A DNA stretch of 64,000 nucleotides from a virus. Taxonomy: Duplodnaviria; Heunggongvirae; Uroviricota; Caudoviricetes. Position numbers and translations under genes: made by a program. Shown here one piece after another: positions 19,367 through 46,974 of this stretch; position 1 is the first letter of the stretch; each line of letters begins with the position of its first letter. The stretch is taken from the IMG/VR virus record IMGVR_UViG_2703718869_000013, positions 33,127 through 97,126 of that record, one strand, 5' to 3'. Under the pieces are notes generated by a model. That model was not told the DNA's origin. It made no database searches and saw only the letters and a program-made list of their open reading frames with translations.

Positions 19367-20202
19367 TGCAGCGTTCCTGGTTTAATAACCGGCTTACATC
19401 AGCTAAGCAAAAGTCATTGCTCTATAAATCATTGGCTGATTTGGTTCAGTCAATGATGGACACCTTTGTTGACCCATGGTTGGAGCGAATTACCAACCGG
19501 AAGTCTATTTTCTCCATGAGCAAGGAGGATCTGGAGACCAGGACAAATGAACTTGGCCAGTTCTTTACTATCAGAACCTCGGACTCATCTTCCGTTCCGA
19601 TGTTGTTACAACAGCGGCTTGATGAGATCCACTTTAAGGGAACTGAACGTCCTATAAACCAGACAATTTACCGCGAATTTAACGGTATTTCTGTTTTATG
19701 GGATCCGATATATGCACCGGTGGACCTTGAGCGTCATCCCTATGGCACAGTTCTAATACCAGAAAGCACATTGGAGACTACCGGCGGCACATTCGGCGAG
19801 ATGTTTCTGACTTCCAGAGGGATGATCAGTATTCCCATAAACGACCTGGCCCGGACAATGGGTATTACTGGCACGATAGATCAGTCCGCAATTACAGAAG
19901 AAATTCTCAGAAAGTTTAATCAGTTCGTAAAGCCTCTACTGCCACTGCATATAGTGTTTGATGGGCTTACGCTCTATTTGTCGGTTGTTGTAAATGAACA
20001 GGCCGACATGATCACTTTGAACGAGATTTCTGATACCGAAAAAGCATTCTGCTGGTTTGAAACTTCGGATACAACTTCGCTTACTGGAGTTACGTCGATT
20101 AGCGCCCCGATCACCGCAACGCCTGGTGGCACTATTGTGAAAGCGACACCTACGTTTGATCGCACCCGCGCAGATGATTTGTTGCTGGATAGCGACGCCT
20201 GA
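19363..20202 (+). CDS. baseplate/tail-fibre hinge protein
   Basis: 279 aa; overlapping start; followed by GC-rich hairpin near 20214-20236. Confidence 0.4.
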   Translation: MMQRSWFNNRLTSAKQKSLLYKSLADLVQSMMDTFVDPWLERITNRKSIFSMSKEDLETRTNELGQFFTIRTSDSSSVPMLLQQRLDEIHFKGTERPINQTIYREFNGISVLWDPIYAPVDLERHPYGTVLIPESTLETTGGTFGEMFLTSRGMISIPINDLARTMGITGTIDQSAITEEILRKFNQFVKPLLPLHIVFDGLTLYLSVVVNEQADMITLNEISDTEKAFCWFETSDTTSLTGVTSISAPITATPGGTIVKATPTFDRTRADDLLLDSDA

Positions 20203-20280
20203 CAATCACCCCGTCCGCAGGGCGGGGTGACAAGTTACTTCTCTTACAATGAGGCTTCACAACAGTGATTAGGGAAAATC

Positions 20281-20715
20281 ATGTCTGACGTCTCAACAAA
20301 CCTCTATAAGAGTCAGTTGTTGGACTATTACTATCAGCGGCGCGCTGAATCGTCCATTAACAAAGGCTCTCGATTTTTAATCAGCAAGGCCGTTTTCGGT
20401 ACCAGTTCTCTGGTTACTAAGAAAGGAGATGGCACTTATGAGATTGGAGAACTGCCAAAGGCTTTCGATCTGGCAGAACTGACCAGCCAATTTTGTACCA
20501 TCAACCTCGTGCCAACCTACTCAGGTGGGATAATTACTGTCCGAATGGACCTTGATCAAAGCCAGTTGCAGGAAGGGAAAAACTACCCATTCAACACTCT
20601 GGTTGTTCTGGATAACGAGAACAAGCCAATCGCCATTATTTGTGTCCAGGAAGACTCGCTGTATGTGGGCAAAACATATACCGCAGTTATGGCCATAAAC
20701 ACGACTACAGCATAA
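20281..20715 (+). CDS. tail fibre-associated protein (R-like)
   Basis: 144 aa ORF immediately upstream of the tail fibre gene. Confidence 0.4.
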
Positions 20716-20726
20716 GGATATGCTTG

Positions 20727-23576
20727 ATGAATGACGTTACAGTTGTTACATCGGTTACTTACCCATCACCCGAGTCGTTGGCTCTGGTTGCTGATGTGCA
20801 ATACCACGAACCATATCTGTCAGCCGCGCTAAACCGAAAATTCAGGGGGATTGTTGACCCGGGATTTTATGCCGGTTTCTTACCTAAGCCTGGCGGTGGG
20901 ATGAACCTGTTAATCACCTCAGTGGATGGAGATAAAACCGCAGGCGCGGCGTCGGTGGATATTGGTGAATTCTACCAGGTAACTATTCAGCAATGTACGG
21001 ATATTCCTCTTGCACTTAGTGCAGGCAAGAAATATGCAATTGTGCTGAAGGGAAGATACCTCCTTGGAGAGGATACCTATCAGGTTAATACCGCGTCACA
21101 TATTCATGCGGCTGAATTTGTTACCAGAACCTATACCGATTCATATCAGTTAGGAGATGGGGAGCTGCTTGTTTGTACGGTGAATATCCCTGCTGGAGTA
21201 TCAGCCATTACCCAGGAGATGATTGATACATCCGAGCGTATTAACCGCACGATCGGCATTGATATCTCAGACTCTGTAACCAGTAGCAGAAGTGATGTTG
21301 CTGCAAGTTCGCTGGCAGTTAAAAAAGCCTACGATCTGGCGAACAGTAAGTATACGGCGCAGGATGCAAGCACAACGCAAAAGGGATTAGTTCAGCTCAG
21401 TAGCGAAACTAACAGCGACAGCGAAACAATGGCGGCTACCCCTAAAGCCGTTAAGTCTGTAAAAGATCTTGCTGATACCAAAGCGCCAATAGAAAGCCCG
21501 AGTCTGACAGGAACGCCAACCGCGCCGACGGCAGCGCAAGGTACAAATAGCACGCAGATCGCAAATACAGCCTTTGTTAAGGCAGCTATAACGGCACTTA
21601 TCAACGGTGCACCTGGCACACTGGATACGCTTAAAGAAATAGCTGCTGCGATCAATAACGACCCGAATTTCAGCACAACTATCAACAATGCTCTGGCTCT
21701 TAAAGCTCCTTTAGCAAGTCCTGCATTAACGGGAATACCTACTGCGCCTACCGCTGCACAGGGTACGAATAACACGCAGATTGCTACGACCGCTTATGTA
21801 AGAGCTGCCATATCCGCATTGGTTGGTTCATCACCAGAAGCTCTTGATACCCTGAATGAGCTTGCCGCAGCACTTGGTAATGACCCGAACTTTGCGACAA
21901 CAATGACAAATGCGCTGGCAGGCAAACAGCCTCTGGATGCAACTTTAACCGCGCTTGCTGGTCTTGCTACAGGCGCAAATAAATTGCCGTACTTTACCGG
22001 TACAGACACTATTTCTCAGACTGACTTAACGTCAGTCGGTCGCGATATTCTGGCCAAAACAAGCGTCCTTGCTGTTATCCAATACCTTGATTTAAGAGAA
22101 CTTGGCACAAGCGGTGAAAAGATCCCCCTGTTGAGCACGGCTAACAAATGGGGTGCACGCCAGACTTTCAACGGTGGGATCACCGGGGCGCTGACAGGGA
22201 ACGCCGACACCGCGACGAAATTAAAAACAGCCATAAACATTAATGGCGTCAGATTCGATGGTTCGGCTGACATTAATATCAATACTCTGGTATCTCGCGG
22301 TCGCGTAACGGCCCTAGAGGCGAATGCACAGGGAACATCCGGGATTCAGCTGTATGAGGCATACAACAATGGCTACCCTTCCCCCTATGGCAATGTGCTT
22401 CACCTTAAAGGTGCCACCGCTGCTGGCGAAGGTGAGTTATTCATTGGCTGGAGTGGCACGAGCGGTGACCATGCGCCCGTACATATCCGTTCGCGGCGTG
22501 ATACTGATTCTGCCAACTGGTCTGAATGGGCGCAGGTCTATACGTCAAAAGATTCAATTCCCGGCGTCAATGCCAAAGGGGATCAGGACACCTCTGGTAA
22601 TGCGGCTACAGCGACCAAGTTGCAGACAGCATGTACTATCAATGGCGTCTCGTTTGATGGTTCTACTGATATCACTTTAACCGCTGCGCATGTTGCTGCT
22701 TTTGCCAGAAGAGCAACGGATACGTATGCCGATGCGGATGGGGGCGTTCCCTGGAATGCCGAATCAGGCGCTTACAATGTCATTCGCTCTGCCGACAGCT
22801 ATATTCTGGTTAACTTCTATACCGGAGTCGGAAGTTGCCCGACCTTGCAGATGAAGGCGCATTACAGAAATGGTGGTCTGTTCTACCGTTCTTCAAGAGA
22901 CGGTTATGGTTTTGAGGAAGACTGGGCAGAAGTTTATACCTCGAAAAATCTTCCACCAGAAAGCTACCCAGTCGGCGCACCAATCCCGTGGCCATCAGAT
23001 ACCGTTCCGTCTGGTTATGCCCTGATGCAGGGGCAGACTTTTGACAAATCTGCATACCCGAAACTTGCAGCGGCTTATCCGTCAGGCGTTATTCCTGATA
23101 TGCGTGGCTGGACGATTAAGGGCAAGCCCGGCAGTGGTCGTGCCGTATTGTCTCAGGAACAGGACGGCATTAAATCGCACACCCACAGCGCCAGCGCATC
23201 CAGTACGGATTTGGGGACGAAAACCACATCGTCGTTTGATTACGGTACTAAAACGACCAGTTCATTTGATTACGGCACAAAAACTACGAATAGCGCTGGA
23301 AATCATTCACACAATATACCTGTTGGTCACACTGGCGCGGGGAATGGTGTATCAGCCGGTTTTAACGCTGCGTTAGGTACTGGTACCACGTCGAGCGCAG
23401 GCGAGCATGCTCACAATGTATATATCGGTGCCCATAACCACACTATCGGCATTGGTGCTCATGCCCATTCTGTCATTATTGGTCCCCACGGACACACCAT
23501 CACCGTTAACGCTACGGGTAACGAAGAAAACACCGTAAAAAACATCGCATTTAACTATATTGTGAGGCTTGCATAA
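20727..23576 (+). CDS. S: tail fibre protein S with lambda Stf-like distal tip
   Basis: ATG at 20727 preceded by AAGGA; repeated motif [20 protein letters not shown] of the T4 gp37 / P1 S / Mu S family; C-terminus has His-x-His boxes and ends [13 protein letters not shown] as lambda Stf does. Confidence 0.85.
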
Positions 23577-24154
23577 TGACATTCAGAATGAGTGAACAAT
23601 CACGGACCATAAAAATTTATAATCTACTGGCTGGAACCAATGAGTTTATTGGTGAAGGTGATGCATACATTCCACCTCATACAGGTCTGCCTGCAAACAG
23701 TACCGATATTGCCCCGCCAGATATTCCGGCTGGCTTCGTGGCCGTTTTCAACAGTGATGAGGCATCGTGGAATCTCGTTGAAGACCATCGGGGAAAAACC
23801 GTCTATGACGTGGCTTCCGGCGACGCGTTATTTATTTCTGAACTTGGCCCATTACCGGAAAATGTCACCTGGTTATCCCCGGAAGGGGAGTTTCAGAAGT
23901 GGAACGGCACAGCCTGGGTGAAAGATGCAGAAGCAGAAAAACTGTTCCGGATCCGGAAGGCGGAAGAAACAAAAAACAGCCTGATGCAGATGGCCAGTGA
24001 GCATATTGCGCCACTTCAGGATGCCGTAGATTTGGATATTGCGACGGAGGAAGAGGCATCGTTACTGACTGCATGGAAGACATATCGGGTATTGTTGAAT
24101 CGTGTTGATACAACAGTAGCATCGGATGTTGAGTGGCCAGTCGCCCCGCAATAA
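23576..24154 (+). CDS. tfa: tail fibre assembly protein (lambda Tfa-like)
   Basis: 192 aa, [44 protein letters not shown]..., near-identical over most of its length to lambda Tfa as I recall it. Confidence 0.85.
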
Positions 24155-24197
24155 AAGGATAAAGCCATCGATAGAAATATTGATGGCTTCATGTACT

Positions 24198-24701
24198 CTA
24201 TTTATACAATACAACACCGCTCTTTTTTGTTATATATGTGCAGTTCGATGGTATATCTTTATTTATAAAAGACATTGCACCTATTTTTACATTATCCCCA
24301 ATTTTACGTGATAATCCAATGATGCAACAATTAGCTCCGATATCAACGTTATTACCAATTTTTACTCTTGAACCAGGCATGTCACCATCTACCTGTCCAA
24401 TGGTAGTATTCTGTCGCAAAACCAGATTTTCACCAGCATCAACAGCAAAATGAACAACAATTCCAGTATGATGGGGAATTGTTAAACCTTTTCCAATATT
24501 TGCGCCCAATCCAATTTCGCAACCAAATCTGTTAATTATATTATTGTTTAACTTTCTGGCTGCTTTCTTATGTAATTTATTGCCATTAATATACATTTCA
24601 TTAGCCAGTCTCCACCAGAAAAGGAAATTCCGATTGCGCTGCTTCTTCTCTCTTAATAGTCGCCAAACATCCATTTTTTCACGCCTGATGATTTCAGCCA
24701 T
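24198..24701 (-). CDS. hexapeptide-repeat O-acetyltransferase (WcaB/CysE-like)
   Basis: Left-handed beta-helix repeats (GCEIGLGANIGKGLTIPHHTGIVV...) and WcaB-like length from Met at 24701; the listed ORF extends to 24770; very AT-rich flanks. Confidence 0.6.
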   Translation of the reverse strand: MAEIIRREKMDVWRLLREKKQRNRNFLFWWRLANEMYINGNKLHKKAARKLNNNIINRFGCEIGLGANIGKGLTIPHHTGIVVHFAVDAGENLVLRQNTTIGQVDGDMPGSRVKIGNNVDIGANCCIIGLSRKIGDNVKIGAMSFINKDIPSNCTYITKKSGVVLYK

Positions 24702-25525
24702 CCAGTAGCTCAATAGAGCTTTTGAATTCCCGAAGATGACAAAGTGAATAGCTATTAAGTAACATAACATATTGCAACTGCCTATATTTTTTGGTTTCTA
24801 TGTTTATATATTGACATTATAATTAAAACAATAATCATCAGTGTGTTACTGCGTTCCTGCTAAACTAAATCAACGCACAATGTAAACACAAATGTTAATT
24901 TTAAACTGAGCGCTAAAGGGATGTCAATATTGTATTGATAATGAGTTGCAAGATTGCCAACACTTTCTATATTTTTGGATGTAATAATTTATATTTTATC
25001 TATTTAGTGTTTCTTTAGACTTATTAAGGATGTCATTATTAATTTATGGCTTGCCATTTCTATACATATCTGTTAAAAATTTTGACTTGTTTGTTGAAAA
25101 TAGATTTAATTGATTGGTTTATTTTTTACATGACGCTCTTTAATATAGCTTCAGGTATATATAAGCACAATGCATTATTTCCAGAGGAAATTAACAAAAT
25201 TGTTAGCTCTTATTTGTTGAGCTTATAGATATTAATTAAGGCCCGATTCCGGGCCTTTCCTCATTCCGGCTTTTCGGGAAACGTTACTGGAAGGATGGAG
25301 GTATCCGTGGATTCGACTTTCTGCGCATAGAGAATCCACTCGGTTAATTTTTGTTTACCCTGAACGGAAATAATGCCTAGCCGTAACTGTGAGTCCCAGA
25401 GCTGAGTTTTATCCCTGACGAGCTGTAGCAGGCTTTGCTTTTCTTTTTCCGCTTGTTGTCTTTGCATGACCGGTTGAGAAGTTACTTTGCATACCATTAC
25501 CTCCTGACAACGTAGGAGGGAACTT

Positions 25526-25855
25526 GTGCTTGACACACAGGAATTAGCTCCAGTTGCTATTGCGCTCCTGCTTTCAGTAATTGGTGGGATAGGCACGTTC
25601 CTGATGGATGTCCGAGACGGTCGCCAGTCTGGCAATTTGTTGGGATTGGTTACGGAGATCTTTGTTGCAGTGACAGCTGGCGCGGTGGCGTACCTATTGG
25701 GGCAACACGAGGGCTGGGAGTTATCAATTACGTACTTAATGGTAACGATAGCCAGCAATAACGGTCATGAGGTGATTTCAGGGATGAAACGAGTGAATAT
25801 CGATAGCATTCTGAATGTTCTTACAAGTTTGGTGAAAAAGGGAGGTGGGAAATGA
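25526..25855 (+). CDS. lydA: holin (LydA-like)
   Basis: 109 aa with two hydrophobic helices; GTG start preceded by AGGAGGG (25514-25520); followed by an overlapping lydB-like gene. Confidence 0.55.
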   Translation: MLDTQELAPVAIALLLSVIGGIGTFLMDVRDGRQSGNLLGLVTEIFVAVTAGAVAYLLGQHEGWELSITYLMVTIASNNGHEVISGMKRVNIDSILNVLTSLVKKGGGK

Positions 25856-26295
25856 TTGGCTGGGGTGTATGCGCTCTTGCGTTAGCCTTAGCCGATCGCT
25901 ATTTGCTAAAACGCAAGGACATCACGCATTTAGAACTTGGTGATGTGGAAATTAAACCGGGTTTCATCCGGGTGCCGTTCAAATACCGGTCTAAATTCCC
26001 GTTTTTGCGCGGCGCAACGGTCAGATATTGGATCCGCGATGTTCAGAAGCCAACGACAGTGATTGAAGGCGAACAACGTTGTCTGACGTCGGCTGAACAG
26101 GGCGAAAACAGTGAATGGTTGTACATACCCACTGAATATATGGGTAAAGGAGAACGGCTGTGGCATTTCAACGTCATGGTTACGCATGGCGACTCGTTCA
26201 TTAACCCGTTGTATCGGATTTTCCCTGTTACTCAGCAAATCCGCAGAAGTTACGTAATAAATCTCGCACAGGATGTGTCAGATGACGAAAAATAA
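25852..26295 (+). CDS. lydB: LydB-like antiholin / lysis regulator
   Basis: 147 aa with N-terminal hydrophobic segment, overlapping the holin stop. Confidence 0.45.
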   Translation: MIGWGVCALALALADRYLLKRKDITHLELGDVEIKPGFIRVPFKYRSKFPFLRGATVRYWIRDVQKPTTVIEGEQRCLTSAEQGENSEWLYIPTEYMGKGERLWHFNVMVTHGDSFINPLYRIFPVTQQIRRSYVINLAQDVSDDEK

Positions 26296-26884
26296 GTATG
26301 CAACGGTCGATTTTGACCAGGTTAATGAAAAGGGGCTGAAATCCCTTATCGCGGCGATCAATAAAACCGGTGTTACGGTAATTGAGGTTGACTCCAGCAA
26401 CCGCGCAACAACGAAAGATGGCGTTAAAGTTAAAACCGCAAAGCTGGTTCTTAACGACGGACAAATTCTTGCCATACAGGTAAACGATACTGGCGATATA
26501 TCGTCTGTGAGGCTGAATGGAAAAGCTATTCCTAACGCTCAGTCGCCGGATATCAAGACGCTTGGTACCGTCATGGGGCAAGCGGCCCGCAAAAACTCCG
26601 CAAAATTCCAGAAATCACTGATCGCCAAAGCGAAACGTGTTGCCAATCCGGTAGACAAGAAACCGGCAGTAAAATCCAACTTTCAGCGCCTGCAAGAGGC
26701 AAAACAGCGGAATGCTCAGGTGGTTGCCGCTTATAAATCAGCGCAGAACTCGGTGTCTTTCAATCAACAGCAGATCACTGATTTGCGGGCGAAGCTGGAT
26801 AAGGAGACAGGCCGACTCAATAACGAAAAGGCCCGAAATGGCGAACTCAAACGCCGTCTTAAGCAACTGAAAGCAGGAAATTAA
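26273..26884 (+). CDS. hdf: Hdf-like protein (homolog of a DarA fragment)
   Basis: Shares motifs NDGQILAI and KNSAKFQ with the downstream 639-aa DarA-like protein (SDGQTISI, KNSAKFQ); start may be ATG at 26282. Confidence 0.5.
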   Translation: MCQMTKNKYATVDFDQVNEKGLKSLIAAINKTGVTVIEVDSSNRATTKDGVKVKTAKLVLNDGQILAIQVNDTGDISSVRLNGKAIPNAQSPDIKTLGTVMGQAARKNSAKFQKSLIAKAKRVANPVDKKPAVKSNFQRLQEAKQRNAQVVAAYKSAQNSVSFNQQQITDLRAKLDKETGRLNNEKARNGELKRRLKQLKAGN

Positions 26885-29167: not shown

Positions 29168-30514
29168 CATCCTCCACGCCCCGAAGGGCGTGGATTCCTG
29201 CTACGTTCAGGCTGTCGCCTGAATCATTTCGGTGGGTTCCTGCTTCAACGGGCGGCCTGACTGCACCATCCCTCCACAGGCAAGTACGGCGTGTCCCGCC
29301 GCTAAAATGTTACGAGCGCCGTTTACATCGGCGTTCGCTGTATATCCACATACCTGGCATCTGAATTTACTTTGTGACAGGCGATTTTCTTTCGCTGTAT
29401 GACCACAGCACGCGCAACGCTGGCTTGTGTACGCTGGCGGAACAGCAAGCACCTGACCGCCACGCCAGAGCTGCTTGTACTCAAGCTGGCGGCGCATTTC
29501 ATACCAGCCCTGATCCAGTATCGAACGGTTTAAACCTGATTTTGCCCGGACATTGCGACCCGGATGACTTATCGTTCCCGCCGCTGACTTTGACATGTAT
29601 TTAACCTTCAAATCCTCAATGACAATCATTGCGTGGTTTTTGCTGATGATCGTTGTGACTTTATGAAGGTAGTCTCTGCGGATATTTGCGATACGAAAAT
29701 GCAGTCGCTGTATTTTGCGTTTCTGCTTCTGCCAGTTGTTGCTGAATTTGACCTTGCGGCTTAACTGTCGCTGAAGTCTCGCCAGCTTCTTCTGGTTTTT
29801 CTGAAAACTGTTTACAGGCTCAAAGACTGTGCCATCTGACAGCGTGGCGAGTTTAGCCACGCCAGCATCCAGCCCGATCATTGATGCTGAAGGGTGAACC
29901 GGAGTGGATATTTCACTTTCTGTCTGAATACTGATGTACCACTTACCGCAGGACTGGCTGACAGTGACATTTTTCACAACTCCCGTGACCTGACGGCTAT
30001 TCCGGTAGCGCATCCAGCCCAGTTTCGGCAGAAAAATACGGCTGTTTTCCTGATCGAGCTTAACGCCCTGCGGGTAGCGAAATGCATCATTCTGTCCCCG
30101 CTTTTTGAATCGGGGAAAAGCAGCCCGATTCTGGAAGAAGTTTTTGTAAGCCCGCTCAAGGTCTTTCAGTGACTGTTGCAATGGCTGTGAGGGAGAATCT
30201 ATAAGCCATTCGGTTTCAGTGTCTTTTTTCCACTCAACCAACCAGGAAGCCATTTTCGTGTAAGGGATGTATTTTTTACCGGCCTCATGATTCTCATTCT
30301 GAAGCGCCAGAGCACGGTTGAAAACGAAACGACAAGCTCCGGCAAAGTGCCTCATTTGACACTCCTGTTGACCATCTGGTTTTAACCGGAATTTGAATGA
30401 CACCTGTTGTTTCATGTCACTATTTTAAGCAAAAATAGCCGGGAGGAAAACTGTGCCTTATATCCCCACTATGAGGAGCGTAGGGGGCGGCACATTGGAT
30501 AAGGCGTAACAGGG
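29168..30514 (-). mobile_element. IS200/IS605-family insertion element carrying tnpB only; boundaries approximate
   Basis: TnpB ORF with flanking non-coding DNA inserted between ddrA and ddrB; subterminal hairpin ccacgccc cgaa gggcgtgg at 29174-29193; no tnpA ORF seen. Confidence 0.55.
29207..30415 (-). CDS. tnpB: TnpB (OrfB) RNA-guided nuclease-type transposase-associated protein
   Basis: 402 aa; RuvC-like motifs ([21 protein letters not shown]) and C-terminal zinc finger CACCGH...CQVCG. Confidence 0.85.
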
Positions 30515-33502
30515 ATGAGCTTAAGCGATCAGGTGGTAATGGCCACCAGCATAGAAACGCTGATCGAGCTGCTAAAGAACCTGCCCGATTATGGGCGGGT
30601 TTCGTATGTGGTGACAGCGAAGGGAGACGAGGTAAAAACAGCGTTTGATATCGTCGATGCCTCAGTTCTTTTGGTATCCAATACTCTGGATGGGAAAATT
30701 AATCCAGACTATCCCCAGGAACTTCAGCCGCGCGACCGGACCCGCGCATCCAGCCTTCTTCAGGTTAACCAGATATCCAAAGATTTGCGGCCTGCTCAGC
30801 TTACCGATTCCGGTTTATCCAGCCATGGCGCGCCGATAATTGGTGAGGACAATGCCGTTGAGTCAGGTAATGGACGGACCATGGGGATCATCAAAGCCTA
30901 TCAGGACGGCAATGCGGATCGGTATCGTGAGTACCTGATTGATCATGCGACCGAATTCGGCATACGACCTGAAAAGGTTGAATCAATGACGGCTCCGGTA
31001 CTGGTGCGCCGCCGGTTAACTAAGGTTGACCGCGTTCAGTTTGCCAAGGACTCAAATATTTCTGATCTTCAGGAAATGGCAGCCAGTGAAAAGGCTTTTG
31101 TTGATGCCGACAGCATAACACCGGCGATGATGGCGCTTTTTAACCCGTCAGAAAGCGGAGATCTGCTTAGCCGCAGTAATGACGCGTTTATTCGCGGATT
31201 TATGACGCAAGTTGGTGCCACACAGGCGGCTGGCCTTGTAACTGAAGATGGGCGACCAACACGGCAACTTGTTGACCGTATACAAAACGCGATCTTTGCC
31301 AAGGCATATAAGGATGCGCGCCTGGTAAGGATGGTTGCAGAAGAACCTGATCCGGATATGCGTAATGTTCTGACGGCGCTTAATGCGGCAGCCAATGATT
31401 TTGTCCAGATGCAGGCTTTATCAGGAGAAGCGCACAAGCAGGCTGTGACAACTATTGTTGATGGCATTGAGACAGCGGATAGCCTCGATAAAAAGGCGCT
31501 GGCGGCATTGAAAGATGCGGTAGACCTGGTAAGGCAATCGAAGGAGTCAGGCCAGCATATTACCGATGTTATTGCTCAGGGGGATATGTTCAGCGAAACG
31601 GCCCCGGAAGTGAAAGCACTCGCGTTGTTCATCGTCGCGAATAACCGTAGCGCGAAGCGTATGGCCACCGCCTTTAAGTTGATGGCGCAACGTATCAATG
31701 ATGAGTTACAGCACCAGGGCCAGGCGCTCGGGGATATGTTTGGCGGCGGCGATGTGTCGTTACAGGATATCCTTCGCCAAGTATCTCAGGAACTGGAAAA
31801 CGAAGGTATGCAAGGGATATCTGGCGGTCTTTTCGAGTCAGCTTCTGGCGGTAGTTACAACGGTGTTGCTCCATATACCAGCTTGCTATTACATCGGGCA
31901 TCCGGCATCAAAGACATTATTCATCTGATCAGGCTGCTTTCCCGTACAGATCCCCAGGATGAACAGCTTGTTCAAGTGCTTGCGCATTTTGTTCGAATGC
32001 CTGTTGCCGACGTGAAAAAATGGTGCCGATTATTCGGTATCAGCAATTCGTTACTTCGCGGCTTGTTAAATCACGCATCCTCCCTTGGGCGCGATGGCTT
32101 TGACGAGATAGCGCAGGCGATAAAAAACGGAGATATGCCACCAGCTATTGACTGGTTTTCCATTCGCCCAACCAGGGTGAAAGCATTCCTTAGCGCGGCG
32201 CATTCGGCATCACCATTGGCAGAAATGGTTCAGAGGTTATCGCTCATATTCACAGACCATACCGCGTTGGGTGATCTGACTCTGGACGAGATGAAAGAAG
32301 CCTCCATTCAGTGGGCCGATCAACAAAATGAGGTTAACTCAGACTTCTTGCCAGCATTCAGGAAGGCCGTTAGTAAAGCGGATGATGCCCGTGGAATTCT
32401 GAAGGCATTTAAGGCATTGCAAAGTCGGGTTAATAAACATGTCGGTGATATCGATGGGGTAACGGCGGAAGGCAGGGATATCCTTAAAGAGCACGGCATA
32501 ACGCCAGAGTTTATTGATGAGATCAGGACGGATATGCAGCGTGAGGTCGTATCGTCCCTGCAAATTGTAGTCAGAGCGTTGGCGGATGCTAATCCGAAGA
32601 GTGCGGCCATTGTTAACCGGGTTATTGGTGATATTGAAGCATCGGAGGGCATGGGGGCGCTGAAACACTTCCTTTCGCGAGCGTTTAATCCTAACGGCAA
32701 TATTCTCCCCGGCATTATTGGTGAGGCTAAAAAGTATGTCAGCGAAGAAGAACTTGAGCATCTTGACCAACTACTTAAGCGATTCTCATATAACCCGCAG
32801 ACACGCTGGCAAATGAATCAGCGAAGTATGGGTTCGGTCCACGAGAAAGTGTTATCCGCCATGAACAGTGCGATCGCCAACTCATCCGTATCTGAAGAAA
32901 AAGCTCTTGAGTGGGCCGACTCTTTTATCACGGAAGAAGTGGAAGAAGCCCGCGCTGGACAGAATGGTGGGATAGACCTGCGCAAGGAACTTGCTGATAT
33001 TTATCGCCTGACCGGCGGTAAAATTTCGACCTTATCAAAGGTGGTTCACCACCAGGGAAGGGCATATGCAAATCTTAATGGTGTTGTTGCTGTCAATTTG
33101 AACGATGAAAATGCAAGTGCACTGTGGCACGAGCTGGGTCATCATCTTGAGTACAGTAACCCAGGTTTGTTAGAGAAAGCCCGGTCATTCCTGAAGGCCA
33201 ATGTTGAAGGGGATAAGCCATCTTTCGTCAATATCGGTGGGCGTGGCAAGCCTGAATGGTGCTTCAGATCTCGATTGAGTAATATTTATATGGCGAAGGT
33301 ATACCCGCCAGCCTCAGTAAGTAACACCGGGAAAATTCGGCAGAAATCACCGACTATTTCCAAAACGTCAGCAACGGAAGTATTCTCTATGGCTCTTCAG
33401 TTGTATCATGGCAAAGAGGCCGCTGCCGCATCACTGATGAATGGTGACGGATTGCTGGAACTGTTATTAGGTGTGGCAAAGGAGCTAAATAATGCAGATT
33501 AA
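30515..33502 (+). CDS. ddrB: DdrB-like large protein with HExxH motif
   Basis: 995 aa; position in the dar operon; HELGHH at 33128-33145. Confidence 0.45.
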   Translation: MSLSDQVVMATSIETLIELLKNLPDYGRVSYVVTAKGDEVKTAFDIVDASVLLVSNTLDGKINPDYPQELQPRDRTRASSLLQVNQISKDLRPAQLTDSGLSSHGAPIIGEDNAVESGNGRTMGIIKAYQDGNADRYREYLIDHATEFGIRPEKVESMTAPVLVRRRLTKVDRVQFAKDSNISDLQEMAASEKAFVDADSITPAMMALFNPSESGDLLSRSNDAFIRGFMTQVGATQAAGLVTEDGRPTRQLVDRIQNAIFAKAYKDARLVRMVAEEPDPDMRNVLTALNAAANDFVQMQALSGEAHKQAVTTIVDGIETADSLDKKALAALKDAVDLVRQSKESGQHITDVIAQGDMFSETAPEVKALALFIVANNRSAKRMATAFKLMAQRINDELQHQGQALGDMFGGGDVSLQDILRQVSQELENEGMQGISGGLFESASGGSYNGVAPYTSLLLHRASGIKDIIHLIRLLSRTDPQDEQLVQVLAHFVRMPVADVKKWCRLFGISNSLLRGLLNHASSLGRDGFDEIAQAIKNGDMPPAIDWFSIRPTRVKAFLSAAHSASPLAEMVQRLSLIFTDHTALGDLTLDEMKEASIQWADQQNEVNSDFLPAFRKAVSKADDARGILKAFKALQSRVNKHVGDIDGVTAEGRDILKEHGITPEFIDEIRTDMQREVVSSLQIVVRALADANPKSAAIVNRVIGDIEASEGMGALKHFLSRAFNPNGNILPGIIGEAKKYVSEEELEHLDQLLKRFSYNPQTRWQMNQRSMGSVHEKVLSAMNSAIANSSVSEEKALEWADSFITEEVEEARAGQNGGIDLRKELADIYRLTGGKISTLSKVVHHQGRAYANLNGVVAVNLNDENASALWHELGHHLEYSNPGLLEKARSFLKANVEGDKPSFVNIGGRGKPEWCFRSRLSNIYMAKVYPPASVSNTGKIRQKSPTISKTSATEVFSMALQLYHGKEAAAASLMNGDGLLELLLGVAKELNNAD

Positions 33503-35338: not shown

Positions 35339-36016
35339 TCACTCCACTACAAACCAGTCACATGCCAGTAAGTCGCCTACAGAAGGAACCCACGGAACAA
35401 CTACACCTTGTGCATTTTTTAAGGCGAAATAAGCACCATACGGAACGAGGTCGCCGGGGAAATATCCCTTAATGGCTTCCATTCGTGCCGGGTACTGTCC
35501 TTCAGGAACCAGCCAGCAGAATTGGTTTTCGCCGTTCCACCCGCGTCGGGCAACTTTCTTGCCATCCTTCAGCCACATCAGCGCGTCAGAAAAGTCGGCT
35601 GCTTCAAGGTCGATTTCTTCTTGTAGAGTAGCGATACCGCCAGCAGAAATAGTTACGTCCCTGGCTGTAATGAATGTCACCCCATTGTGACCTTCAATGC
35701 TGAGCGATACCCCATTTTCGAAGAAGTCGTTAGTCCGACTAAAGCCTTCTTCAAATGTTTTTTCTGGCGAATAGGACAGAGATCCGTCCTCATAAGCGAC
35801 CAGATATCCGCCAATTTCTGGTCGGTGTTTTTGCAAAAATATTTTATCAACATGGACTTTTACCCCTTCTGGCTCAACGACTTCGATGTTGCAAAAAAGG
35901 ACCACATCCATTAGGGCGATAATTTCGATATCTTTGATTTTTGAGGCGCGAACTGTTTTATGGCTTTTGTATTTTGGAAGTGCCGTCAAAAGCTCTTTCG
36001 TTGTCATGTTATTCAT
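35339..36016 (-). CDS. protein with C-terminal DUF2829 / Tad2-like domain (candidate anti-defence sponge)
   Basis: C-terminal 80 aa FSDALMWLKDGKKVARRGWNGENQFCWLV...WVPSVGDLLACDWFVVE fit the DUF2829 pattern as I remember it (F-x-E/D-A-L..LK-x-GKKV-x-R-x-GW...DLLA-x-DW). Confidence 0.5.
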   Translation of the reverse strand: MNNMTTKELLTALPKYKSHKTVRASKIKDIEIIALMDVVLFCNIEVVEPEGVKVHVDKIFLQKHRPEIGGYLVAYEDGSLSYSPEKTFEEGFSRTNDFFENGVSLSIEGHNGVTFITARDVTISAGGIATLQEEIDLEAADFSDALMWLKDGKKVARRGWNGENQFCWLVPEGQYPARMEAIKGYFPGDLVPYGAYFALKNAQGVVVPWVPSVGDLLACDWFVVE

Positions 36017-38017: not shown

Positions 38018-38239
38018 ATGGTTAATGCCAATCCTTGCGCACGCCAAGAATTCATCTGGCGTTTCTATTCCTGTAAAAAACACCACTATCACTTCGTTAT
38101 CGCAGCAACTGAAGACGAAGCACGCTCTCAATTGCCTGATGGCCCCTGCATTTTTACTGCCCGTTTTTCAACTAACTCGCGCAATTCACTTAGTTACTGG
38201 AGCCTCCCCTTCTCTGCCGACGTTCAGGGGGGTTTATGA
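38018..38239 (+). CDS. icd: Icd-like small protein (module B)
   Basis: 73 aa, stop overlaps the ant start; RBS overlapped by the ACTTGTG target heptamer. Confidence 0.6.
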   Translation: MVNANPCARQEFIWRFYSCKKHHYHFVIAATEDEARSQLPDGPCIFTARFSTNSRNSLSYWSLPFSADVQGGL

Positions 38240-39279
38240 AAAAACCTCTCGTCACCCGTAATGACATAGCCGAAGCGATCGCCCTGCATACTGCCTGTAT
38301 GCCGACACGGGAGATCCCCGGCGCAATTGCCAACTATTTCATGATAACCAGGCGTTTTTATACCCGAACAGATAAGGCTGTGATCAACAGGCTACTGATA
38401 GCCGAGATCAGGGATTATTTGATTGAACAAGGACGTCTACGTTACGCAACGGTGGCAGCAGAAATGAGAAAGGAGGCACATAGAATGACCAGTAATAATT
38501 TGAATGTTAAAAAACCAGCATCTGTTGCTTCAGCTACGCCATCACCAGCTGTGAATGTTATCTCCAACACTGGAGATACAATCGACAGCCAGACGCTGTT
38601 AAAGATGGTTAATGAGGCGCGCAAGCTATGTGGGGAAAATGAGATCCGCAATAACGATTTTCTCAATAGAATTAAGGATGAACTTGATGGGGAATTTTAC
38701 GAAACTTTCGTAAAATCCCATGGCACAAGGGCCGGGCGCTCTTTTGAGGTCATAACCATGACCTACAAACAAGCCCTGCGAGTCGCCGCGCGCGAGTCAA
38801 AAGCGGTCCGCCGTTCGCTGATCGACAAACTGGAAGAATTGCAGCAGGCAAACTCCCCTACCCCATCGATCCCCCAAACATTACCAGAAGCCCTACGTCT
38901 GGCTGCCGAGTTAGCAGAACAGAAAATGCAGTTGGAACAACAGCTGGTGGCCGCAGCCCCTAAAGTCGATTTTGCTGACCGGGTATCAGCGGCTAATGGA
39001 ATCCTGATCGGGAACTTTGCAAAGGTCGTTGGACTTAAGCAAAACGCCCTTTTCTCATGGTTGCGCCAGAACGGCATTCTCATGGCTTTTGGTGCGCGCA
39101 AAAACGTACCGCGCCAGCAATACATCAACGCCGGGTATTTCACGGTGAAAGAAGTGGTGCTGGATGATGAAGATGGTTACCAGATACGGCTGACGCCCCA
39201 ATTAACGGGTAAAGGCCAGCAGTGGTTGACGCGTAAACTGCTCGATGCAGGTTTATTAAAGCCTGTAGCGGCTGAGTGA
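38236..39279 (+). CDS. ant: antirepressor Ant (module B)
   Basis: 347 aa, about 90 percent identical to the module A Ant by eye; conserved ANT C-terminal domain. Confidence 0.75.
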   Translation: MKKPLVTRNDIAEAIALHTACMPTREIPGAIANYFMITRRFYTRTDKAVINRLLIAEIRDYLIEQGRLRYATVAAEMRKEAHRMTSNNLNVKKPASVASATPSPAVNVISNTGDTIDSQTLLKMVNEARKLCGENEIRNNDFLNRIKDELDGEFYETFVKSHGTRAGRSFEVITMTYKQALRVAARESKAVRRSLIDKLEELQQANSPTPSIPQTLPEALRLAAELAEQKMQLEQQLVAAAPKVDFADRVSAANGILIGNFAKVVGLKQNALFSWLRQNGILMAFGARKNVPRQQYINAGYFTVKEVVLDDEDGYQIRLTPQLTGKGQQWLTRKLLDAGLLKPVAAE

Positions 39280-42085: not shown

Positions 42086-42387
42086 TTAATTAGAACAATT
42101 CACATCATGTTTGAACGGAATTTAACACTAGTCACTTGTTAAGGATTACCAATGAACAAGCTATCTATGTGGTGTTTCGCTGTTCAAGTGTCAGCGAAAT
42201 ATTGAAATATATTAGTGCAATAACATTTCATCGGGCGCCGATTAGATACGGCGTGGAAAAGGTGGAAGGCAAAAGCTATGACCGACTACGCCGGACGTGA
42301 AATAATATGTCCACACTATCTGATACAATAAAACCGAATAGGACATAACTTCGACGTCAAAGCCTTGGCACAGGCTGGAGAGAAAAC

Positions 42388-42636
42388 TTGAAAAAGCGAT
42401 ACTACACAGTAAAGCATGGGACGCTACGAGCATTACAAGAGTTTGCTGACAAGCATAACGTTGAGGTGCGCAGGGAAGGGGGAAGTAAAGCTCTGCGCAT
42501 GTACCGTCCGGACGGGAAATGGCGTACGGTCGTCGATTTCAAAACTAACAGTGTTCCCCAGGGCGTCCGCGATCGGGCATTCGAAGAATGGGAGCAGATC
42601 ATCATAGATAATGCTCTGCTACTAAATGCTGACTGA
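42388..42636 (+). CDS. hypothetical small basic protein
   Basis: 82 aa; faint resemblance to HicA/YcfA-type small RNA-binding toxins (GSKALRMYRPDGKWRTVV) but lacks the His and any adjacent antitoxin ORF. Confidence 0.3.
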   Translation: MKKRYYTVKHGTLRALQEFADKHNVEVRREGGSKALRMYRPDGKWRTVVDFKTNSVPQGVRDRAFEEWEQIIIDNALLLNAD

Positions 42637-42674
42637 GTTTAATATTACAATATTATCTGGGAGATAAATGCATA

Positions 42675-43409
42675 TTATTTTCCAGATAATAACTGATGTT
42701 TTGCATATTCACGTGGCGTGCAATTATAATATTGCCTGAACAGGCACACAAAGTACGATGTACTACTAAAGCCACAGCTTTCTGATACTTGTTTGACTGA
42801 ATGATTTTGCTTTAGTAATTTAATAGCGAAAGCCATCCGTGTATCAAGTAATAACTTACTGAAGGAGGTGTTTTCCAATAATAGTTTTTTCTTTATTAAG
42901 CTTTCACTCATGTAGAGATAATCGGTTAGGTCTCTTAGTTTCCAGTGTTTAGATACATCTGAAAGAAATATGCTGCGCACTTTCCCTGAGAAAGTGGGCA
43001 TACCAGACGTAAGAAATGCTCTAAAGTTATCAACATCATTAAAAATTGAGAGTAATGAAAAAGTTACTGCCTCCCTAAAATCAGAATGGATATGATTTTG
43101 GTCGCTTATATTATCGATCATCCTGATTAATAAATCAGGATAGGCAAAAGACTTTTTTAGCAAATGTGGACACTTATCCAGCGATTGGTTTCCAAGGTTG
43201 TTGCTGCATAATAAATAGTTTCTTACGGTATTATCATTGAGTTCGAATTCTATATATTTGTCTGAATACATTTTTAAGCATTCATGCTCAGAATGCTTAA
43301 GCAACAACACATCACCGTAATTTAATATCAAGAAATCCTTAAGAAATTGAAAGCTTATAGGTTTCTTTATGAGTATGAAGTAACAAACTGCTGACATGGC
43401 CACCACCAT
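42675..43409 (-). CDS. AraC-family transcriptional regulator (AppY/EnvY-like)
   Basis: C-terminal helix-turn-helix region LIKKKLLLENTSFSKLLLDTRMAFAIKLL...GFSSTSYFVCLFRQYY closely resembles E. coli AppY as I recall it; AT-rich gene. Confidence 0.8.
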   Translation of the reverse strand: MVVAMSAVCYFILIKKPISFQFLKDFLILNYGDVLLLKHSEHECLKMYSDKYIEFELNDNTVRNYLLCSNNLGNQSLDKCPHLLKKSFAYPDLLIRMIDNISDQNHIHSDFREAVTFSLLSIFNDVDNFRAFLTSGMPTFSGKVRSIFLSDVSKHWKLRDLTDYLYMSESLIKKKLLLENTSFSKLLLDTRMAFAIKLLKQNHSVKQVSESCGFSSTSYFVCLFRQYYNCTPREYAKHQLLSGK

Positions 43410-43535
43410 TCTAAAGAGGCTTTGAATAAGAATAGAGATAGCCAGGCTCAGAAATCAAGAAGTTGTGTAAAAATAAAATTATTGATTTATGTCACATTTT
43501 TTGATTGTTTTAATTGATGTTTTTCAATATTATCA

Positions 43536-43559
43536 CAAACAAACAAACAAACAAACAAA
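43536..43559. repeat. tetranucleotide microsatellite (CAAA)6 in a divergent promoter region
   Basis: Six perfect tandem CAAA units between the divergently transcribed AraC-like and EAL genes. Confidence 0.95.
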
Positions 43560-43661
43560 TAAATTGACATTTAATCTACAAAAGTAGAGTGTAACTCTTG
43601 TAAATATAGGGGGCTCGTTATCTGAGCAAAATCAAGCAATTTAAAACTTGAGGGTGGGGAT

Positions 43662-44351
43662 ATGGAAGTTATCTACATTGCAGAACCAATCATTTCTACG
43701 AGCACGAACAAGTTGATTGCAGTAGAAGTGTTAAGCAGATTTCGCTCCAAAGATGGTGTCGCTCTTCCTACTCAAAGAGTATTGGGTATGTTTACCAATA
43801 AGATGAAGATTAATTTACTTAAATCACAACTTAACACAATAATGAAATACAAGTGTTTTTTTGAACGCCATAATATACTATGTTCTATTAATGTAGATTA
43901 TGATACATGTATATATATATACAGTAATAAACAAACTCAAGAGTTAATTAAAAACAATAAATTTATAGCTCTTGAGATATCAGAAAACTACCCTGATTTA
44001 AGCGATGAGGATTACGTTATACCCTTTCTCCTGACTTTGACAGACTATGTTTGGCTTGATGATTTTGGAAGTGGCAACACCACCATGAAAACATTAATTA
44101 AAAATAAATACCATGCAATAAAACTTGATAAGGCCTTTTTCCAAGAATATGGGACTAATCCTCATTTTGATGTCATTATTAGTAATTTAAAAAAATTATG
44201 CCCGAATATCATCGCTGAAGGTGTTGAAAACATTGAGTGTCATAAGCTATCAAAAGGGATAGGGCTATGGGGTGCCCAGGGATATTTTTTTCCATCAATT
44301 CCTCTGGTGGAGATTGAGTCCATAGATAGTAAGTGGCTATCAGATTTATGA
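43662..44351 (+). CDS. stand-alone EAL-domain c-di-GMP phosphodiesterase (PdeH/YhjH-like)
   Basis: 229 aa with conserved EAL catalytic motifs: EVL, EISE, DDFGSGNTT, KLDK, EGVE, QGY; architecture and length like E. coli PdeH. Confidence 0.8.
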   Translation: MEVIYIAEPIISTSTNKLIAVEVLSRFRSKDGVALPTQRVLGMFTNKMKINLLKSQLNTIMKYKCFFERHNILCSINVDYDTCIYIYSNKQTQELIKNNKFIALEISENYPDLSDEDYVIPFLLTLTDYVWLDDFGSGNTTMKTLIKNKYHAIKLDKAFFQEYGTNPHFDVIISNLKKLCPNIIAEGVENIECHKLSKGIGLWGAQGYFFPSIPLVEIESIDSKWLSDL

Positions 44352-44404
44352 GATGCAGAGAGTTAGGATATTGATATGAACGTCTAAGCACCTCATTACC
44401 ATGC

Positions 44405-45049
44405 TTAAAAGATGTTATCCTTACCTGTTAATTTACCTTGAGGAACTTTAGCGAGCTCCATCCGATAAAATGCTCTTATCATATTTACAAATGGTTCATA
44501 TGGTGAATATCTGTTGTCTTGTTCAGTAATGGTGTTTGTCATTGTCCTGATGAAGTCTGCGCTTGCCACGTTGTTGTATTCCGTTGCGAAGCAGCATAAC
44601 AACGTCAGAACGTGCTCTGTCGTTATTTCGCTCCAGTTGATGTTGAAAAACTCATCGCCTTTTTTATCGTGTTCGGAATCGAAGATGCTTTGGTGGAGGA
44701 TGTATTTGCCGGATTCCTTGCGCGGTAACTTGATTGCTTTCTGGCGTTCCAGCTCCTTATAAATCTGCATTGCCTCAATTAGTACCGGCCTGCCGTTCAT
44801 GAAGGGATCGCGCAACCTTACACGCTGGCCAACTCGACCAGTAATAAAGCTGTTTTCCTCTTCCACCAGCACGATAAAACCCTTCTCCTCTTTTTCTCGC
44901 AATTCGCGCAGCAGCTGGAGTTCCATATCGCGGCGGCGTTCAGGGTAGCTGGTCCGCTCAGCCATTATCAGCTCGTTATTGATCCATGCAGCAGTCATTG
45001 ACGCCGGTTTGCCGACGCTCATCGAAACAACGCATATTTTCTTATCCAT
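44405..45049 (-). CDS. hypothetical protein
   Basis: 214 aa from ATG at 45049 preceded by GGGGGAG; the listed ORF extends to 45196; no family recognised. Confidence 0.45.
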   Translation of the reverse strand: MDKKICVVSMSVGKPASMTAAWINNELIMAERTSYPERRRDMELQLLRELREKEEKGFIVLVEEENSFITGRVGQRVRLRDPFMNGRPVLIEAMQIYKELERQKAIKLPRKESGKYILHQSIFDSEHDKKGDEFFNINWSEITTEHVLTLLCCFATEYNNVASADFIRTMTNTITEQDNRYSPYEPFVNMIRAFYRMELAKVPQGKLTGKDNIF

Positions 45050-45643: not shown

Positions 45644-45865
45644 ATGGTTAATGCCAATCCTTGCGCACGCCCTGAATTTATCTGGCGCTTTTACTCCTGC
45701 CAGAAACGCCACTATCACTTCGTTATTGCACCGACAGAAGATGAGGCACGTTCTCAGCTTCCGGATGCTCCCTGCATTTTCTCCGCACGCTTTTCTACTG
45801 ACTCGCGCAATTCTCTCAGTTACTGGTGCCTCCCTGTTAACGCTTCTGTTCAGGAGGGGCTATGA
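45644..45865 (+). CDS. icd: Icd-like small protein (module C)
   Basis: 73 aa paralog; stop overlaps the ant start. Confidence 0.6.
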   Translation: MVNANPCARPEFIWRFYSCQKRHYHFVIAPTEDEARSQLPDAPCIFSARFSTDSRNSLSYWCLPVNASVQEGL

Positions 45866-46974
45866 GAACGTCATTAGTCACCCGTGAAGAGATGATCGAG
45901 GCAATTGAACAGCACACAATCTGTATCAGCACCAGGGATATACCAGGCGTTATTGCCAACTACTTCATGATCACCAAACAACTTTACCGGAGAAAGGACA
46001 AGAACGCGGTTCACCGTATCCTGTTGTCTGATATCCGCGAATACCTGCTCGAACAGGGTCATCTGAATTACGCAACCGTCGCAGCCGAAGCACGCAAGGA
46101 GGCACACAGAATGAAAGCAACTAACGTTAAATCAGAAAAAATTTATGCACCTTCAGTTCAGGAATCGGAACTGGTGGTTGTTCAGAATCAGCCGGATGAA
46201 ATTCCCGTTCTGGAATGGCAGGGAGTACGTGTCGTAACAACCGAAACTCTTGCTAGAGGGTATGGGGTCGATGAAGCCAATATTCGCAACAATTTGTCTC
46301 GCAACCTTGACCGCTTTGAAGAAGGTAAGCATTACTTTCTTCTAACTGGTTTAAAATTAAGAGAATTTAAGAACAGAGTAACCGGAAGTTACTCTGTTGG
46401 TAAGAACGCCAGAAGCCTTACACTCTGGACAGAGCGCGGCGCTGCACGCATGTCTAAGATCGTGGACACAAATGAAGCATGGGCATTCTTTGAAAAACTG
46501 GAAGACAGCTACTTCCGGCAAAAAGAACAGCAACCGGTCGCAATCCCTCAGACGCTTCCCGAAGCTCTGCGCCTGGCTGCCGAGCTGGCTGAACAAAAGC
46601 AACTTCTGGAACAGAAAGCCCACCAGCTAAATCAGCAGCTGGTGGCCGCCGCCCCTAAAGTCGATTTTGCCGACCGGGTATCAGGGGCCAAGGGGATCCT
46701 GATTGGAAATTTTGCAAAGGTTGTTGGGCTTAAGCAAAACGCGTTGTTTGCCTGGTTACGGGGGAACGGCATCCTGATAGCGTCCGGTGGACGTAAAAAT
46801 GTGCCGTTCCAGCAATACATCAACGCCGGGTATTTCACGGTGAAAGAAGTGGTGCTGGATGATGAAGATGGTTACCAGATACGGCTGACGCCCCAATTAA
46901 CGGGTAAAGGCCAGCAGTGGTTGACGCGTAAACTGCTCGAAGCTGGCTTGTTAAAACCGGTGGCGGCTGAATGA
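45862..46974 (+). CDS. ant: antirepressor Ant, type 2 (module C)
   Basis: 370 aa; different central domain from modules A/B (AntA/ORF6N-like, PVLEWQGVRVVTTETLARGYG) plus the shared ANT C-terminus. Confidence 0.75.
   Translation: MRTSLVTREEMIEAIEQHTICISTRDIPGVIANYFMITKQLYRRKDKNAVHRILLSDIREYLLEQGHLNYATVAAEARKEAHRMKATNVKSEKIYAPSVQESELVVVQNQPDEIPVLEWQGVRVVTTETLARGYGVDEANIRNNLSRNLDRFEEGKHYFLLTGLKLREFKNRVTGSYSVGKNARSLTLWTERGAARMSKIVDTNEAWAFFEKLEDSYFRQKEQQPVAIPQTLPEALRLAAELAEQKQLLEQKAHQLNQQLVAAAPKVDFADRVSGAKGILIGNFAKVVGLKQNALFAWLRGNGILIASGGRKNVPFQQYINAGYFTVKEVVLDDEDGYQIRLTPQLTGKGQQWLTRKLLEAGLLKPVAAE

Follow-up and report, generated by a model that had tools for sequence, protein, structure and literature searches.

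Bacteriophage P1 alternates between two tail fiber tips through Cin-mediated inversion of the DNA between the sites cixL and cixR, and the receptor of its fiber part Sv is the lipopolysaccharide (LPS) core. It has long been established that P1, Mu, P2, lambda, and T4 exchange fiber tips horizontally. The 64-kb window analyzed here (the whole stretch of DNA, positions 33,127 to 97,126 of IMG/VR record IMGVR_UViG_2703718869_000013) belongs to a P1-like (Punavirus) plasmid-prophage, and the present analysis concerns its tail fiber gene S and the chaperone gene tfa that follows it. These two genes very probably form a natural chimeric tail fiber in which the host-range module has been swapped. A preliminary description of this DNA had placed a mosaic fiber at positions 20727-24154, which are exactly those of S and the next gene. 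Each of its stated features was checked, and the P1-type proximal part, the Stf-type tip, and the Tfa-type chaperone were all confirmed.

The replacement of the P1 tip in such elements was already known from public records and was noted in the paper on JL22, whose GenBank record labels the genes as stf and tfa; the current understanding of these fibers is unchanged. The points added here are the precise position of the crossover, at the inner boundary of the P1 inverted repeat; the tripartite origin of the distal half of S; a head that is not of the lambda type; and the occurrence of the foreign arm among relatives in an on, off, or locked state. The locus provides a clean natural example of how unrelated temperate phages (P1, P2-like, and lambdoid) swap tips and their chaperones at conserved motifs.

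Architecture of the S fiber and its chaperone

The fiber operon of the window has the same arrangement as that of P1 (LPs, R, S, and a chaperone gene), is flanked by the same genes 16 and lydA, and carries its cixR-like site at the same place. The genes were found in the order 16, R, S, the tfa-type gene, an opposite-strand acetyltransferase gene, a U' remnant, lydA, lydB, hdf, and darA (Table 1). Both boxes of the late promoter LPs were identical to those annotated in P1, with a single substitution between them, and the R-S-tfa operon would be transcribed late from this promoter. The constant region Sc, as found in Punavirus S genes, was present 3' of LPs and R, and amino acids (aa) 1-647 of S are P1 sequence, comprising the baseplate-proximal part and the shaft of the fiber. 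Over aa 1-653, S shared 96.2% identity with aa 1-653 of P1 S, and the Sc and repeat-encoded part shared 96%. The proximal fiber is thus that of P1. The P1 part that was kept exceeds Sc and spans the whole inverted repeat at 22077-22665; in P1 (96%) as well as in JL22 (98%), this stretch matched both copies of the repeat. The repeated motif reported for the N-terminal part of S was recovered as two stretches of Pfam Phage_fiber_2 (E = 4.5e-30) in the N-terminal half, and two protein repeats of approximately 74 aa (aa 253-326 and 327-400) were seen in the translation of Sc. Tandem Repeats Finder detected no tandem repeats in S at the DNA level, the shaft repeats being visible at the protein level only, and a self-BLAST of S gave no off-diagonal high-scoring pairs.

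P1 homology extended from upstream of R to position 22665, which is the inner end of the inverted repeat. In a three-way alignment of the window, P1, and the lambdoid 2H10, the window tracked P1 up to 22665 and 2H10 from 22666, and the sequence at this crossover, GTTTGATGGTTCTA, was common to P1 and lambdoid stf genes. JL22 and the window parted at the same base (22665/22666). Alignment revealed that the C-terminus of S is not of the P1 Sv type, with no significant similarity to Sv beyond aa 653. The P1/Mu-type distal part (Sv/Sv') with U/U', which is another feature of Punavirus S loci, was absent, except for a 232-nt U' remnant. From the motif ...INGVSFDGS onward, the P1-specific distal part of Sv has been replaced by a globular domain of the lambdoid Stf type, followed by a collar, a needle that is predicted to be six-stranded, and a small head, and P1 U has been replaced by the cognate lambda-type Tfa. 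Relative to P1, an acetyltransferase gene was also inserted.

The intermediate globular domain (aa ~648-746) aligned to residues 324-415 of the Mu fiber S structure (PDB 8JU3; E = 7e-22) and gave a weak match to Pfam gp37_C. The homology to 2H10 covered 22596-23252 at 93% DNA identity. JL22 contained an unrelated domain in place of this one, resulting in an S protein of 1006 aa. Because JL22 shares both neighbors of the intermediate domain with the window, 22665/22666 and ~22965 are recurrent module boundaries.

The distal tips of T4 gp37 and lambda Stf constitute a family of receptor-binding proteins (Bartual 2010; Magaziner and Salmond 2022, PMC9659904). The tip of S displayed the features of this family, namely homology to gp37 and orf-314, a collar with a serial His-x-His (HxH) needle, conserved flanks around a divergent head, and an adjoining chaperone gene. 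Pfam Collar was detected at aa 750-797 (E = 5.6e-12), and the last ~205 aa matched the crystal structure of the T4 gp37 tip (2XGF) with an E-value of 1.5e-78, sharing 65% identity with gp37 residues 812-1026. The label "P1/T4-type" had previously been applied to the shaft; the shaft is indeed that of P1, whereas the likeness to T4 resides in the tip (aa 744-949, ~65% to the gp37 tip structure). This likeness extends over the collar, the iron-binding needle with its HxH motifs, and the C-terminus, but T4 gp37 differs in its head and in the number of HxH motifs (seven), and its chaperone gp38 was only 29% identical to the Tfa of the window. The His-x-His boxes reported at the C-terminus of S numbered six (aa 818, 860, 894, 903, 912, and 921), and could be aligned, over aa 818-923, to the corresponding motifs of T4, lambda, and phiNP. 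The six triplets would hold metal ions that stabilize the needle, as in T4 gp37.

The ending of S had been noted as Stf-like, and its C-terminal 15 aa were identical to the ends of lambda orf-314 (Stf) and T4 gp37. The Stf character of the whole tip was likewise borne out, since aa 746-949 aligned to aa 69-314 of lambda orf-314 with 63.6% identity (E = 3e-99), and aa 614-949 shared 77-81% identity with lambdoid Stf proteins. Lambda Stf (orf-401/orf-314) and Tfa resemble the system of the window in the collar, the HxH needle, the C-terminal residues, and the overlap between the fiber stop and the tfa start, which reads TAATG in the window. On the other hand, lambda has eight HxH motifs instead of six, and its N-terminal attachment part is lambda-specific. 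No NCBIfam model matched S or Tfa.

Tfa matched Pfam Caudo_TAP (PF02413; E = 8e-43). It had been described as almost identical to lambda Tfa; the lambda-type assignment stands, but the identity is 88.5% over 191 aa (E = 2e-130). Such E-values, and those of the fiber repeat and the Stf match, lie far outside what chance would give. The Tfa of P2-like prophages (93%) and that of 2H10 (91%) were also similar. Compared with P1 U and Mu U (5YVQ), only the last 66 residues (aa 127-192) aligned, with 44% identity, and the N-terminal 126 aa were lambda-type. In the model proposed for Tfa proteins, a variable N-terminal domain binds the fiber and conserved C-terminal helices trimerize (PMC9608196, citing North et al. 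2019). In the fiber described here, the lambda-type N-terminal domain would bind the needle tip, and the C-terminal helices would drive trimerization. Because the N-terminal domain of Tfa is fiber-specific, the chaperone would have had to be co-transferred with the tip.

A donor of the lambda/Rac type had been suggested for the tip and chaperone. The module is lambda-type, but lambda itself is not its nearest relative, as both P2-like prophages and other lambdoid Stf proteins are closer. The tip shared 92-96% aa identity with the H protein of P2-like prophages and ~80% with the lambdoid Stf of Chlobot and 2H10, compared with 64-74% for lambda. At the DNA level, the block from the collar to the acetyltransferase gene (22965-24762) found its best matches in P2-like prophages (94% identity), which were carried by O26 and O111:H8 chromosomes and by the 1.4-Mb STEC411 replicon (deposited as a plasmid). 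The H, G, and acetyltransferase genes of these prophages in enterohemorrhagic Escherichia coli (O26, O111, and STEC411) were the closest relatives of the collar-head region, Tfa, and the acetyltransferase, and have the same order and orientation. However, the N-terminal two-thirds of H are P2-type, whereas the intermediate domain of the window is lambdoid-type. In O26 and O111 strains, plasmids of this kind occur together with P2-like prophages that carry the collar-head-tfa-acetyltransferase block; for example, O26 strain RM10386 harbored the P2-like copy in its chromosome and the window-type arrangement on a plasmid. The foreign module would most probably have been gained by short-homology recombination with such resident prophages.

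The presence of 94%-identical tip-tfa-acetyltransferase blocks in the same strains could in principle mislead assemblers, and the junctions would then represent a misassembly of P1-like plasmid reads with chromosomal prophage reads that share repeats. This explanation has a negligible probability, as the joins at 22665/22666 and 25465/25466 recur in many independent closed plasmids (more than 20) and in a phage genome, and the plasmid and chromosomal copies differ by ~6%.

Some lambdoid prophages (e.g., NZ_AP022298, 2841324-2848953) also showed an unusual split or insertion in the fiber locus: the annotated order in the stf region is a protein labeled 'prophage tail fiber N-terminal domain', a separate 'macro domain-containing protein', and then tfa.

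Table 1. Features of the fiber locus and their positions in the window.
Feature	Position	Strand	Basis or remark
P1 late promoter LPs driving R-S-tfa	20232..20250	+	-22 box AAGTTACTT, -10 TACAAT
R, P1 tail fiber structure/assembly gene	20281..20715	+	99.3% identity to P1 R (144 aa)
S, chimeric tail fiber gene, 949 aa	20727..23576	+	start ATG, MNDVTVV..., same as P1 S start
Sc, constant P1 part of S	20727..22087	+	P1 Sc = 1361 nt, to cixR crossover
Homologue of P1 C-segment 0.6-kb inverted repeat (Sv-proximal part)	22077..22665	+	single copy remaining
Sole remaining cix site (cixR homologue) TCCAATACCTTGaTTTAAGA	22078..22097	+	fuzzy search against P1 cixR
P1-to-foreign crossover zone, 14 nt, GTTTGATGGTTCTA	22652..22665	+	three-way alignment; encodes ...INGVSFDGS motif
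Intermediate globular domain, lambdoid-Stf type, aa ~648-746	22666..22964	+	93% DNA identity to 2H10 stf
Collar, His-x-His needle, and head (T4 gp37/lambda Stf type), aa 747-949	22965..23573	+	PDB 2XGF
Predicted receptor-specificity (head) insert, aa 863-893, 31 aa	23313..23405	+	between second and third HxH motifs
tfa, lambda-type tail fiber assembly chaperone, 192 aa	23576..24154	+	at P1 U position; Caudo_TAP
Hexapeptide (LbetaH) acetyltransferase	24198..24770	-	Pfam Hexapep; true start may lie nearer 24674
Putative sigma-70-like promoter 5' of the acetyltransferase	24898..24927	-	TTGACA-18-TAAAAT, 11/12, consensus scan only
U' 3' remnant, ~77 codons, chaperone gene of lost alternative arm	25234..25465	-	86% identity to P1 U'
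Deletion joint	25465..25466		blastn vs JL22 and P1, junction sequences
P1 late promoter LPdar, intact, abutting the deletion joint and preceding lydA-lydB-hdf-darA	25479..25497	+	39/40 nt as in P1

Head region and receptor specificity

Conserved flanks around a variable head have been described as the pattern of this receptor-binding family (PMC9659904). An alignment of the window tip with those of JL22, Chlobot, 2H10, lambda, T4, phiNP, and the STEC411 prophage showed the same pattern. The scaffold flanks around the head were 77-99% identical across these tips, and 77-89% identical to those of lambda, T4, phiNP, 2H10, and Chlobot, whereas the head region shared only 5-8 of ~31 residues with the latter five. 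Conversely, 29-30 of the 31 head residues were shared with JL22 and with the P2-like STEC411 prophage, the latter sharing 30. The insert at aa 863-893 corresponds in position to residues 932-965 of T4 gp37, and this loop region would contact the receptor. The head variant was detected in 213 of 5426 complete E. coli genomes, at 208 chromosomal places and at 64 on plasmids.

Receptors within the family are diverse. Lambda Stf binds OmpC (PMC12617516), T4 gp37 uses OmpC or LPS (PMC12617516, PMC9659904), and phiNP recognizes the Glc-II residue of LPS, with deletion of ompC having no effect (PMC6456863, PMC9659904). It is unlikely, but conceivable, that the tip works as the lambda Stf tip does and that the phage has gained OmpC-dependent adsorption like that of Ur-lambda Stf and T4 gp37. 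The collar and needle scaffold was 84% identical to that of lambda and 77% identical to that of T4, the chaperone is lambda-type, and both lambda Stf and T4 gp37 bind OmpC (PMC12617516). However, the region equivalent to the T4 determinant shared only 7 of 31 residues with lambda and 8 of 30 with T4; the lambda head insert is unrelated and 73 aa long, compared with 31 aa in S; and phiNP, which has a similarly conserved scaffold, binds LPS Glc-II and not OmpC (PMC9659904, PMC6456863). An assignment to OmpC is therefore unjustified, since the head region is unrelated to those of lambda and T4 and since members of the family use different receptors. As judged from these alignments, the OmpC specificity of lambda would not be transferable to this fiber, and its receptor is unpredictable from the sequence.

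The host range should nevertheless differ from that of P1, because the head is unlike those of lambda, T4, and phiNP and unlike P1 Sv. The earlier prediction of a receptor specificity different from that of P1 thus appears reasonable. For the P1-like plasmids of O26, O111, and O157 Shiga toxin-producing E. coli (STEC), the host range of P1 cannot be presumed. In addition, P1-based transducing particles or vehicles for antimicrobial delivery could be engineered by splicing at the ...SFDGS motif, where the C-segment repeat has its inner edge.

The lost inversion switch and the relatives of the locus

Variability of the C segment and loss of cin have been described in P1-like plasmids (PMC6906374). 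In the window, the features of a Cin/cix switch, which belongs to the shufflon-like switches of the Din family, were reduced to one cix-like site and one repeat copy. A second cix site was not found in the whole 64-kb window (pattern search, up to 4 substitutions), whereas JL22 and P1 contained two intact sites each; no cin homologue was found in the 64-kb window (best tblastn E-value of 0.25), and no inverted partner of the 0.6-kb repeat was present in 20000-26500. Relative to JL22, 2877 bp were missing at the joint 25465/25466, which comprise Sv' and a 5' portion of U', the other inverted repeat together with cixL, and the genes cin and lydC. The U' remnant was contiguous with JL22 U, and Pfam Caudo_TAP covered its C-terminal part only. 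No convincing cix-like site or microhomology was detected at the joint. Compared with P1, the lack of the second inverted repeat, cixL, cin, Sv', lydC, and most of U' makes inversion impossible, and the fiber is locked on because cin, cixL, Sv', and most of U' have been deleted.

The surviving cix site carried a single G-to-A change beside the crossover core, which converts a Gly to an Asp in S. A link between this change and the loss of cin was tested and rejected, because the cin-less plasmid of strain 2015C-3101 keeps an intact site. The change was shared by the window, Ro157c2YLVW, and pF1273-3, and is a lineage polymorphism and no sign of decay.

JL22, p15648-1, and pEND_Eco19025-2 have the same P1 part, crossover point, collar-needle-head (94%), tfa (98%), acetyltransferase gene, and spacer as the window, but they keep cin, both cix sites, and a Mu/P1-type alternative arm, and thus the complete set of switch features. 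The Stf-type arm was joined to Sc in JL22, and to cin/cixL in p15648-1 (NZ_CP009051, 26750-27050) and pEND_Eco19025-2 (NZ_CP126933, 34650-34950). The occurrence of both orientations among cin-positive relatives indicates that, in nature, the foreign arm has undergone inversion like an ordinary arm of the C segment. The module would thus have been one arm of the invertible C segment, as in these relatives, and the 2.9-kb deletion would then have fixed the fiber type in the window.

The locked state was found in Ro157c2YLVW and in ~20 plasmids of PLSDB, among ~293 plasmids with a near full-length Sc. The window was 98.8% identical to phage vB_EcoM-Ro157c2YLVW over 20281-25900, and the identity over 22300-25700 was 100% for several E. 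coli plasmids and 99.9% for pO111_3 (NC_013370, from O111:H- strain 11128). Across R, S, tfa, the acetyltransferase gene, the U' remnant, and lydA, Ro157c2YLVW and the pO111_3-type STEC plasmids shared 98.8-100% DNA identity with the window, including the deletion joint, and differed by point changes only (e.g., 3 aa in Tfa). A literature search for the names Ro157c2YLVW and pO111_3 found no paper mentioning either in the searched library.

The S protein of Ro157c2YLVW, which was deposited as a myovirus isolated on STEC O157, was 99.7% identical to that of the window, which argues that the chimera would be functional. The reverse possibility is that the chimeric S is dead in a defective plasmid-prophage, with the recombination and the 2.9-kb deletion being signs of decay and no functional fiber being made. 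The absence of cin, Sv', lydC, and darB and the replacement of several P1 regions are consistent with such a relic, and P1-like plasmids whose C segment no longer functions have been interpreted as degenerating (PMC6906374). However, S, tfa, and R were full-length and free of frameshifts, with the stop of S and the start of tfa coupled, LPs was intact, the arrangement was conserved at 97.6-100% in ~20 complete plasmids of different serotypes, and a near-identical gene set occurred in a deposited phage isolate. A dead relic is accordingly very unlikely.

Several points weigh against a functional P1-based chimera with a swapped host-range module, even though it is the preferred explanation. Ro157c2YLVW is taken to be infectious from its database record. 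The best non-P1 matches were 93-94% identical and not fully identical, so that the assignment of donors is approximate. In addition, the intermediate domain and the collar-acetyltransferase block had different best relatives. Together, these findings require at least two recombination events or a donor outside the sampled sequences. Finally, the prophage lacks darB and lydC and has undergone other replacements, and this copy may or may not be inducible.

The acetyltransferase gene and other features of the window

The acetyltransferase gene is convergent with tfa and has a low G+C content (27-39%). The encoded protein matched the NCBIfam models EpsC, CysE, and WcaB, all far under their curated cut-offs, and a place in the LbetaH EpsC/CysE/WcaB clade is suggested by scores that lie far below every one of these cut-offs. 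It was 88% identical to the product of the gene adjoining tfa in P2-like prophages and 45% identical to sat of phiNP. Citrobacter phage phiNP and P2-like prophages also carried the trio of tip, tfa, and acetyltransferase genes, and one strain had the tfa-acetyltransferase pair beside a lambdoid stf. Chlobot carried a glycosyltransferase gene at the position of the acetyltransferase gene, and in O157:H7 the tfa-acetyltransferase junction was located in a decayed P2-like remnant without a fiber gene. A strict tie between the acetyltransferase and the head variant was considered and rejected, as the tfa-acetyltransferase junction was present in 530 of the 5426 E. coli genomes, compared with 213 for the head variant.

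The acetyltransferase may be a receptor-modifying conversion gene (moron). In prophage CUS-3, the acetyltransferase gene neuO adjoins the gene for the K1 endosialidase tailspike, which is a proposed analogy. A further, rather doubtful suggestion is that the imported unit was a three-gene cassette, consisting of the tip, Tfa, and the acetyltransferase with its own sigma-70-like promoter, that is mobile among P2-like, lambdoid, phiNP-like, and P1-like phages, and that the acetyltransferase would acetylate the glycan recognized by the tip. If so, the acetyltransferase would represent a lysogenic conversion function that modifies the LPS core, the O-antigen, or another exopolysaccharide, and acetylation would shield lysogens from superinfection and stop progeny from adsorbing to debris. 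The acetyltransferase gene lies inside the invertible segment of cin-positive P1-like plasmids, and the whole cassette would be locked on in the window.

Other parts of the window also departed from P1. A 1.3-kb non-P1 insertion that separates ddrA from ddrB contained a TnpB/IS605 OrfB-type gene (29207-30415, minus strand; OrfB_IS605, E = 4e-33, with a Cas12f1-like TNB domain). darB (P1 10.0-17.1 kb) was absent at window position ~42294-42360, and the res-mod region (42632-44540) was replaced by genes encoding a protein with an AraC-type helix-turn-helix domain (42675-43409, minus strand) and an EAL-domain protein (43662-44351, plus strand). Two proteins with KilAC/ANT antirepressor domains were encoded in non-P1 insertions (38236-39279 and 45862-46974, both on the plus strand), the second of which also contained an ORF6N domain. 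A non-P1 stretch adjoining isaA harbored a gene (35339-36016, minus strand) for a 225-aa protein with a Tad2-like (Thoeris anti-defense 2) domain (E = 1.6e-22), which may be an anti-defense gene.

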